A DNA stretch of 64,000 nt, taken from Candidatus Omnitrophota bacterium (lineage in GTDB: Bacteria; Omnitrophota; Gorgyraeia; JAHJTE01). Below, a report on this DNA, generated by a model with database tools, continues. The letters are not shown here. The stretch lies in contig JAHJTE010000001.1 of the NCBI GenBank assembly GCA_018830005.1, positions 193,332 to 257,331 on the forward strand. The letters are read 5' to 3'.

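Follow-up and report, generated by a model that had tools for sequence, protein, structure and literature searches.

We consider it probable that the island under study comprises two adjoining RiPP-type gene clusters, here called cluster A (36374-42389) and cluster B/C (42399-58347), with an XrtA/PEP-CTERM-type exopolysaccharide export locus immediately downstream, that a Cys-rich protein tail encoded in cluster A is a substrate, and that cluster B/C is related to, but more elaborate than, the linear polyphosphorylated peptide (LPP) systems of Bacillota. The ORF map and family scans confirmed the gene content that the initial annotation had described at 36.3-58.3 kb. The proposal of one amplified system was replaced by two separately conserved clusters. 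In the locus comparison, cluster A occurs alone in the homologous loci L002, L004, L006, L010, and L014, and cluster B/C occurs alone in L007, L009, and L019. The scan of GTDB species with the family of the fused, 175-aa protein of cluster A gave six loci and the metagenome scan with the family of peptidase::transferase fusions of cluster B/C gave nine; thus, the co-occurrence is based on ~12 independent loci rather than on statistics. The export genes right after the island include a match to TIGR03027 (181.3 bits; cutoff 180), a pepcterm-type ATPase (230 bits), and a Wzc-like kinase, while housekeeping genes fill the first 31 kb of the window. The GC content of the island is slightly below that of its flanks. 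A mobile element or a horizontally acquired island was rejected based on this GC content near that of the flanks, the lack of a tRNA or an integrase, and the housekeeping genes upstream. No Rfam family or tRNA was found anywhere in the window, so that it has neither a riboswitch nor an island boundary flanked by a tRNA, and a scan for promoters and terminators returned counts at the level of shuffled sequence.

The locus comparison also bears on the possibility that the island encodes a single integrated pathway for one substrate, in which all seven radical SAM (rSAM) proteins and both sets of kinases and peptidases mature the same peptide(s). The genes run nearly all in one direction as a single block, with stops that overlap starts, and Y-x-x-P-x-[LI]-x-K-x-[KR]-[LM] is common to both types of leader found in the island. 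Moreover, the window contains no peptidase or exporter gene within cluster A, so this cluster probably depends on those of cluster B/C; in L008 and L016, too, the two clusters are neighbors, in full or reduced form. However, the two halves are separate in most loci, and neither shares its precursor type, recognition element, or kinase family with the other; BLAST found no similarity between the two kinases at E 1e-3. Altogether, these observations make a single pathway quite unlikely and support two clusters that adjoin each other.

Seven ORFs match Pfam Radical_SAM with E values between 1e-13 and 1e-27, and each of them has a CX3CX2C motif and a GGEP-like motif. Numbered along the island, they form two families. 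rSAM1 to rSAM5, of which the first four belong to cluster A, share 27-41% mutual identity and have a seven-Cys SPASM domain with the pattern C-x(11-17)-C ... C-x2-C-x5-C-x(0-2)-C ... C. rSAM6 and rSAM7 (group B) are 61% identical to each other and at most 26% identical to the other rSAMs, and their C-terminal Cys number five. The four PqqD-like domains listed in the initial annotation fared unequally. Two were identified by Pfam, i.e., in the 175-aa protein (37480-38007) and in the 100-aa stand-alone recognition element PqqD2 (45397-45699; 63.7 bits), and PqqD2 also matched LppB of the LPP system (9x8z) with an E value of 4e-4. The third, a 113-aa ORF on the minus strand (53093-53434), has no Pfam match; nevertheless, its small family aligned with the PqqD2 family in hhalign with a probability of 91% (E 9e-7), and its homologue in L007 gave a weak PqqD match. 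The fourth, the putative PqqD-like end of a 536-aa glycosyltransferase, is weakly supported, with a probability of 8% and an E value of 0.004 for this C terminus against PqqD. The two HprK-like P-loop proteins scored under the threshold on the named models; both keep the P-loop and an acidic motif, the P-loop and the Asp being invariant, and the first, encoded in cluster A, is assigned to ScmC (PF27840) in the precomputed annotation.

The curated NCBIfam cutoffs for GeoRSP, HPr-rel-A, SynChlorMet (SCM), and named peptide or cofactor maturases were reached by no island protein. Because no rSAM, PqqD, or kinase is at cutoff, the rSAM chemistry cannot be read off family membership. Accordingly, the initial annotation of the locus as a combination of GeoRSP and HPr-rel-A was not borne out: the gene types are alike, i.e., rSAM/SPASM plus PqqD in GeoRSP and PqqD plus an HprK-related kinase plus a nucleotidyltransferase in HPr-rel-A, but the scores are 72-100 for TIGR04303 (cutoff 400) and 24.7 for TIGR04302 (cutoff 100), and TIGR04352 (cutoff 200) gave 61.2 with the second kinase and 28.7 with the first. 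Roles as NirJ/AhbD in heme d1/heme b synthesis, MoaA, PqqE, or an anaerobic sulfatase maturase were also rejected, as the top or listed matches were two- to ten-fold or more under the equivalog cutoffs and no partner genes of these pathways were present in the scans.

In cluster A, the gene order rSAM1, PqqD::tail protein, rSAM2, ScmC-type kinase, rSAM3, and rSAM4 recurs with one-to-one orthologues, which are 53-69% identical to the proteins in the window in L002, L004, L010, and L014 and ~40% identical in L006. These one-to-one relationships argue that the four rSAM genes of cluster A have distinct conserved functions and did not arise by recent amplification. The genes that follow this cassette vary among the loci and include an ABC exporter, a PF14907 transferase, a GNAT-like protein, and a sulfotransferase or glycosyltransferases; in L004, the cluster starts with a stand-alone 144-aa signal-peptidase-like protein with GFSMWP and HR motifs.

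The 175-aa protein has 52 homologues, nearly all of which are 175-200 aa in length, and those with a named source are all labelled Omnitrophica. Among 48 homologues, the mean pairwise identity is 63% in the recognition element (residues 1-97), 18% in a linker of variable length (residues 98-114), 73% in the leader KKKPYKxPEIAKVKMQPEQA (residues 115-133), and 17% in the core outside the Cys columns (residues 134-175). The core, which we refer to as class 1, comprises 41-65 residues among the homologues and 42 in the window copy. In the alignments, it has five fixed Cys, three of them invariant (C138, C152, and C162) and two at least 90% conserved (C137 and C156), while the residues between them are hypervariable and their spacing varies. 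Of 49 homologues, 43 have an NxC motif; Ser/Thr is the last residue in 49 of 50 and occupies core position 3 in 38 of 49, with Ala at this position in 10 of 49. In all 49 homologues, the leader Tyr lies 16 residues ahead of the putative core start, i.e., the residue after the invariant Ala, as does Y-16 of LppA in the LPP system. Based on this conservation pattern, which is the classic leader/core signature of RiPPs, the Cys-rich tail is likely a precursor peptide. Thus, the protein previously described as a PqqD domain with a Cys-rich tail is real, and its tail is likely a substrate; with this precursor pattern, the RiPP-like interpretation of the island is strengthened.

The class-1 leader and core are not confined to the fused protein. 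They also exist as stand-alone peptides of 83-89 aa (the homologous sequences P0156, P0194, and P0225) and as 65-67-aa ORFs in L008 and L004; in L004, a class-1-type peptide directly follows a 93-aa stand-alone PqqD and represents a split form of the fusion. P0205 consists of two leader-core units in tandem, and the L004 cluster encodes three fused paralogues of the 175-aa protein. These forms help to evaluate the idea that the protein is a chaperone or recognition element whose Cys tail holds a metal or an Fe-S cluster, e.g., to deliver electrons or sulfur to the rSAMs, while the true substrate is encoded elsewhere. PqqD proteins are normally chaperones, and the five fixed Cys could bind a metal. 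Moreover, the TIGRFAMs descriptions of related in-silico cassettes are not known to name a precursor, which would also favor this idea. However, hypervariable residues and varying spacing between the Cys are atypical of a cofactor site, stand-alone and tandem peptides with the same leader and core as well as three fused paralogues in one cluster are not what a metal-binding tail would call for, and the Cys region is preceded by a YxxP leader at the LppA spacing and is predicted to be disordered. We therefore hold a metal-binding tail to be improbable and favor the tail as the substrate.

The hypervariability of the core similarly argues against the synthesis of a peptide-derived redox cofactor of the PQQ/mycofactocin type in place of an exported modified peptide. 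It is true that the PQQ and mycofactocin pathways are built around an rSAM/SPASM enzyme and PqqD and that the PqqE and MftC models are among the sub-threshold matches (80-103 bits). However, cofactor precursors keep invariant reacting residues and conserved cores, the scores are far under the equivalog cutoffs of 265-381 bits, and no homologues of PqqB, PqqC, or MftD-F were seen in the family scans. Moreover, a cofactor pathway is hard to reconcile with a dedicated ABC exporter, with kinases, and with leader-peptidase-like domains, and we regard this explanation as very improbable.

In an AF2 model of the 175-aa protein generated with the 48-sequence alignment, pLDDT is ~90 for the recognition element, 57 for the linker, and 82-87 for the leader, and the core is disordered. 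Leader residues 122-127 are modelled as a beta strand and, because the model is a monomer, this strand can pair only with the sheet of the recognition element. The pLDDT values and the DSSP strand are indirect support for the idea that the leader may dock in cis on its own recognition element. The best structural matches of the recognition-element fold are the lasso B1 proteins TbiB1 and TfuB1, which were solved with leaders, and the best solved relatives by sequence are TbiB1 and LppB. The nearly invariant Asn44 and the invariant Glu79 align with N33 and D70 of LppB, which hold the Pro and Tyr of the leader in place (Popov et al. 2026, PMC13381572). The 175-aa protein would be a natural case of a RiPP precursor and its recognition element in one polypeptide, and the split, fused, and tandem forms would make a clean system for the study of leader presentation. 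In the literature searched, coverage of which was incomplete, we found no report of a natural fusion of this kind, of a combination of rSAM enzymes with an HprK-like kinase, or of a system of this sort in Omnitrophota, for which only metagenome surveys were found.

Building on the observed gene content, domain folds, synteny, leader/core conservation pattern, and stand-alone and tandem forms, we infer each chemical step of the two clusters as follows. The recognition elements would bind the YxxP leaders, in cis in the case of class 1. rSAM1 to rSAM4 would cross-link the class-1 core at the conserved Cys, and thioethers of the sacti-/ranthipeptide type are the most likely products. The HprK-like kinase of cluster A would phosphorylate Ser/Thr, with core residue 3, the C-terminal residue, or both as candidates; because core residue 3 is Ala in some homologues, phosphorylation at the site equivalent to that in LPPs cannot be universal. 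In analogy with LppS, the signal-peptidase-I-like domains of cluster B/C would remove the leader and, in cluster A, the fused recognition element as well. For class 1, this cut would be made after the invariant Ala, 16 residues past the leader Tyr, i.e., between ...PEQA and VLSCC. Finally, the MsbA-like ABC transporter would export the products of both clusters.

Several features of the island are found in characterized systems. The sacti- and ranthipeptide systems (subtilosin/AlbA, SCIFF, PapB) also combine rSAMs that have seven auxiliary Cys in SPASM with a recognition element and a Cys-rich ribosomal peptide. However, their recognition element is normally in the rSAM enzyme, whereas that of the island is in the substrate; their clusters usually have one or two maturases compared with four in cluster A; and they are without a kinase, a transferase, and a signal-peptidase-like protease. 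The island rSAMs score only 54-86 on the AlbA model (cutoff 850) and 53-69 on the PapB model (cutoff 340). In the paeninodin and pseudomycoidin systems, the C-terminal Ser is the target of an HprK-like kinase, and the addition of a hexose to the phosphate depends on PsmN (Zyubko et al. 2019, PMC6993621). The island resembles these systems in its PF14907-type transferase, its lasso B1-type recognition element, and its class-1 cores ending in Ser/Thr. In contrast to these lasso peptides, residues for macrolactam formation are not evident in the island and rSAMs are present. Among all ORFs at 34.9-58.4 kb, neither the asparagine-synthetase-like lasso cyclase nor the B2 transglutaminase-like protease was found with Pfam and NCBIfam; lasso systems as such share with the island only the B1-type recognition element and the YxxP leader.

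Cluster B/C has its own candidate precursor (class 2). A 43-aa ORF (45159-45290), the gene call of which is present in the source annotation, lies between rSAM5 and PqqD2. Its leader contains YEKPKL, and the pattern Y-x-K-P-x-L-x-K-Y-[KR] also occurs in short ORFs that occupy the same place in L008, L018, and L019. In all six frames of the window, [YFW]xxPx[LIVM]x[KR]x[KR][LMI] occurs only twice, i.e., in the 43-aa ORF and in the PqqD tail. The four distinct class-2 sequences found are all without Cys, and because this Cys-free precursor lies beside a SPASM rSAM, the reaction of rSAM5 must be other than thioether formation. In the pathway that we propose, the 43-aa precursor would be bound by a discrete recognition element, modified by rSAM5, and phosphorylated by the second HprK-like kinase. 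A downstream block is kept in L007, L008, L009, L016, and L019 and has, in this order, a GT4 glycosyltransferase and a group B rSAM, an S24-like::PF14907 fusion, an HprK-like protein and a ~105-aa PqqD-like protein that are both on the minus strand, an ABC exporter, a second PF14907 protein, and the pepcterm ATPase followed by an HD-domain protein and Wza.

The island has two fusions of a signal-peptidase-like domain to PF14907 (50430-52205 and 56095-58347). The predicted fold of the peptidase-like domain matches LexA, UmuD', and SipA; it scores 27 bits on Peptidase_S24 (cutoff 23.3), and the two copies score 38 and 30 bits on TIGR02228 (cutoff 51.85). In this family, His-Arg and Asp are invariant and the nucleophile position is occupied by Ser or Cys. 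The positions of the nucleophile, the His, and the Asp correspond to the catalytic S29, H68, and D93 of LppS, the leader peptidase of the LPP system that needs LppB (PMC13381572). We assume that these domains are proteases despite having Cys in place of Ser in both window copies. The PF14907 domains, with 137.7 and 134 bits (cutoff 31.2), have an invariant GDIDL motif, and their closest solved folds include LnuA and ANT(2'')-Ia (5cfs, 4xje); these ANT(2'')-Ia structures are those cited for PsmN by Zyubko et al. (PMC6993621). The second fusion carries a GNAT domain as well. Sequence comparison with the PDB yielded nothing meaningful for the first fusion or for the 113-aa protein when it was used as a single sequence. 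The exporter consists of ABC_membrane and ABC_tran and scores 271 bits on the MsbA model, which is under its equivalog cutoff. In the mechanism that we propose, the PF14907 domains would decorate the phosphate, aided by the GT4+rSAM pairs, the methyltransferase, and the GNAT domain.

The initial annotation knew of no characterized RiPP counterpart for this gene set; however, the right half of the island is LPP-like (PMC13381572). [quoted passage not shown] LppK is a Ser kinase that polyphosphorylates Ser3 of the core, while no activity was seen for LppN (PMC13381572), so that the role of the transferase is unproven even in the model case. In its gene content, the right half of the island has the same set, with a discrete PqqD-type element, an HprK-like kinase, PF14907, an MsbA-like exporter, and a putative SpI-like peptidase. 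The likeness extends to the polysaccharide locus, the leader YxxPx[V/L/I], the Tyr 16 residues ahead of the core, and the common Ser at core position 3. The differences are also clear. LPPs are described as restricted to Bacillota (Popov et al. 2026, Nat Commun, PMC13381572), and the host of the island is an Omnitrophota bacterium; the peptidase and the transferase of the island are fused, present in two copies, and have Cys at the nucleophile position in both; the island adds rSAM/SPASM enzymes, GT4+rSAM pairs, a methyltransferase, and a GNAT domain; and the recognition element of cluster A is fused to the precursor. Likewise, the leaders deviate from the LPP consensus YxxPxVLxHQxIxFETxxS, with which they share YxxPx[LI] and the spacing between the Tyr and the core, while the remainder reads KVK[LM]QPEQA in class 1 and KY[KR] in class 2. 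The presence of five SPASM rSAMs argues that the class-1 product is not simply linear. With this island, the LPP machinery, i.e., a signal-peptidase-like leader peptidase, an HprK-like kinase, and a PF14907 transferase, would be extended beyond Bacillota and combined with rSAM cross-linking.

Two of the homologous loci bear on the GT4+rSAM pairs. In L008, GT4 and the group B rSAM are a single 775-aa protein, supporting that the two functions are coupled. In L006, a GT4+rSAM pair like that of cluster B lies among DegT, WbqC, PIG-L, and WecA-like sugar genes and, therefore, such pairs may act on a glycan instead of a peptide. Together with the adjoining XrtA/PEP-CTERM-type export genes, which form a conserved neighborhood, and the resemblance of the exporter to MsbA and PglK, these observations would fit an exopolysaccharide or capsule locus in which the rSAM/SPASM enzymes, glycosyltransferases, PF14907 proteins, methyltransferase, and GNAT domain act on sugars or lipid-linked intermediates, the glycan leaves through the ABC transporter, and the PqqD proteins are incidental. 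However, a glycan locus leaves unexplained three or four recognition elements of the lasso/LPP type, two families of ORFs or tails with a leader and a variable core, the signal-peptidase-like domains, and the HprK-like kinases. Moreover, cluster A is also found apart from glycan genes, e.g., in L004, and the homologous gene set of Bacillota acts on a peptide (PMC13381572). We therefore consider it unlikely that the island as a whole is a glycan locus, although this explanation may be right for the GT4+rSAM pairs alone.

The neighborhood of exopolysaccharide export genes recurs in Omnitrophota, Thermodesulfobacteriota, and Bacillota and hints at a link between peptides and the capsule or biofilm. 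A more far-reaching reading is that the 175-aa proteins represent a new precursor architecture with the recognition element within the substrate, which would itself offer its leader to the modifying enzymes, that the mature products are multiply thioether-bridged, phosphorylated, and phospho-glycosylated, and that they are functionally tied to PEP-CTERM-type exopolysaccharide export. While we regard this reading in its entirety as doubtful, the products would, if it is true, be, e.g., a peptide carrier, primer, or cap for the glycan or a capsule-associated signal, and by the same reasoning, the substrates that have long been missing for the ScmC-type cassettes of other phyla would be identified.

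The SCM cassette ScmC-ScmF is an in-silico definition (NCBIfam TIGR04248-04251, Pfam PF27840), and a literature search for 'SynChlorMet' found no papers. Cluster A resembles this cassette in having two or more PqqE-like rSAM/SPASM proteins, a PqqD homologue, and an HprK-related ScmC, and the cluster A kinase and its homologues belong to PF27840. However, the scores are 23.8 for TIGR04249 (cutoff 125), 20-25 for TIGR04248 (cutoff 100), 74-89 for TIGR04250, and 62-82 for TIGR04251 (cutoff 400 each), and cluster A has four rSAMs compared with two and an identifiable precursor, which is fused to PqqD. The homologues of the ScmC-type kinase, all of which are PF27840 proteins, reach other phyla. L025, a locus in a Thermodesulfobacteriota MAG, and L026 have a simpler cassette with PqqD, one rSAM, a 58-61-aa peptide, ScmC, a stand-alone SpI-like peptidase, and a PF14907 protein; in L025, this cassette adjoins exopolysaccharide export genes. 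Cluster A of Omnitrophota, with its four rSAMs and substrate-fused recognition element, looks like an expanded member of this broader uncharacterized family. ScmC-type cassettes, which have so far been defined in silico only, thereby become directly testable, with candidate substrates in which a YxKPx[LI] leader is joined through E[EQ][AV][VL][LV] to a core that contains Cys and ends in Ser. The peptides of L025 and L026, MTQDDPEGGKKLPYEKPVLRSIELVAEEVLVVGCK...HGVGS and MKERITERPRRPYVKPRIRTIELAAEEVLAVGCK...AAAGS, have this arrangement with EEVL at the junction (YxKPx[LI]...EEVL..C...S).

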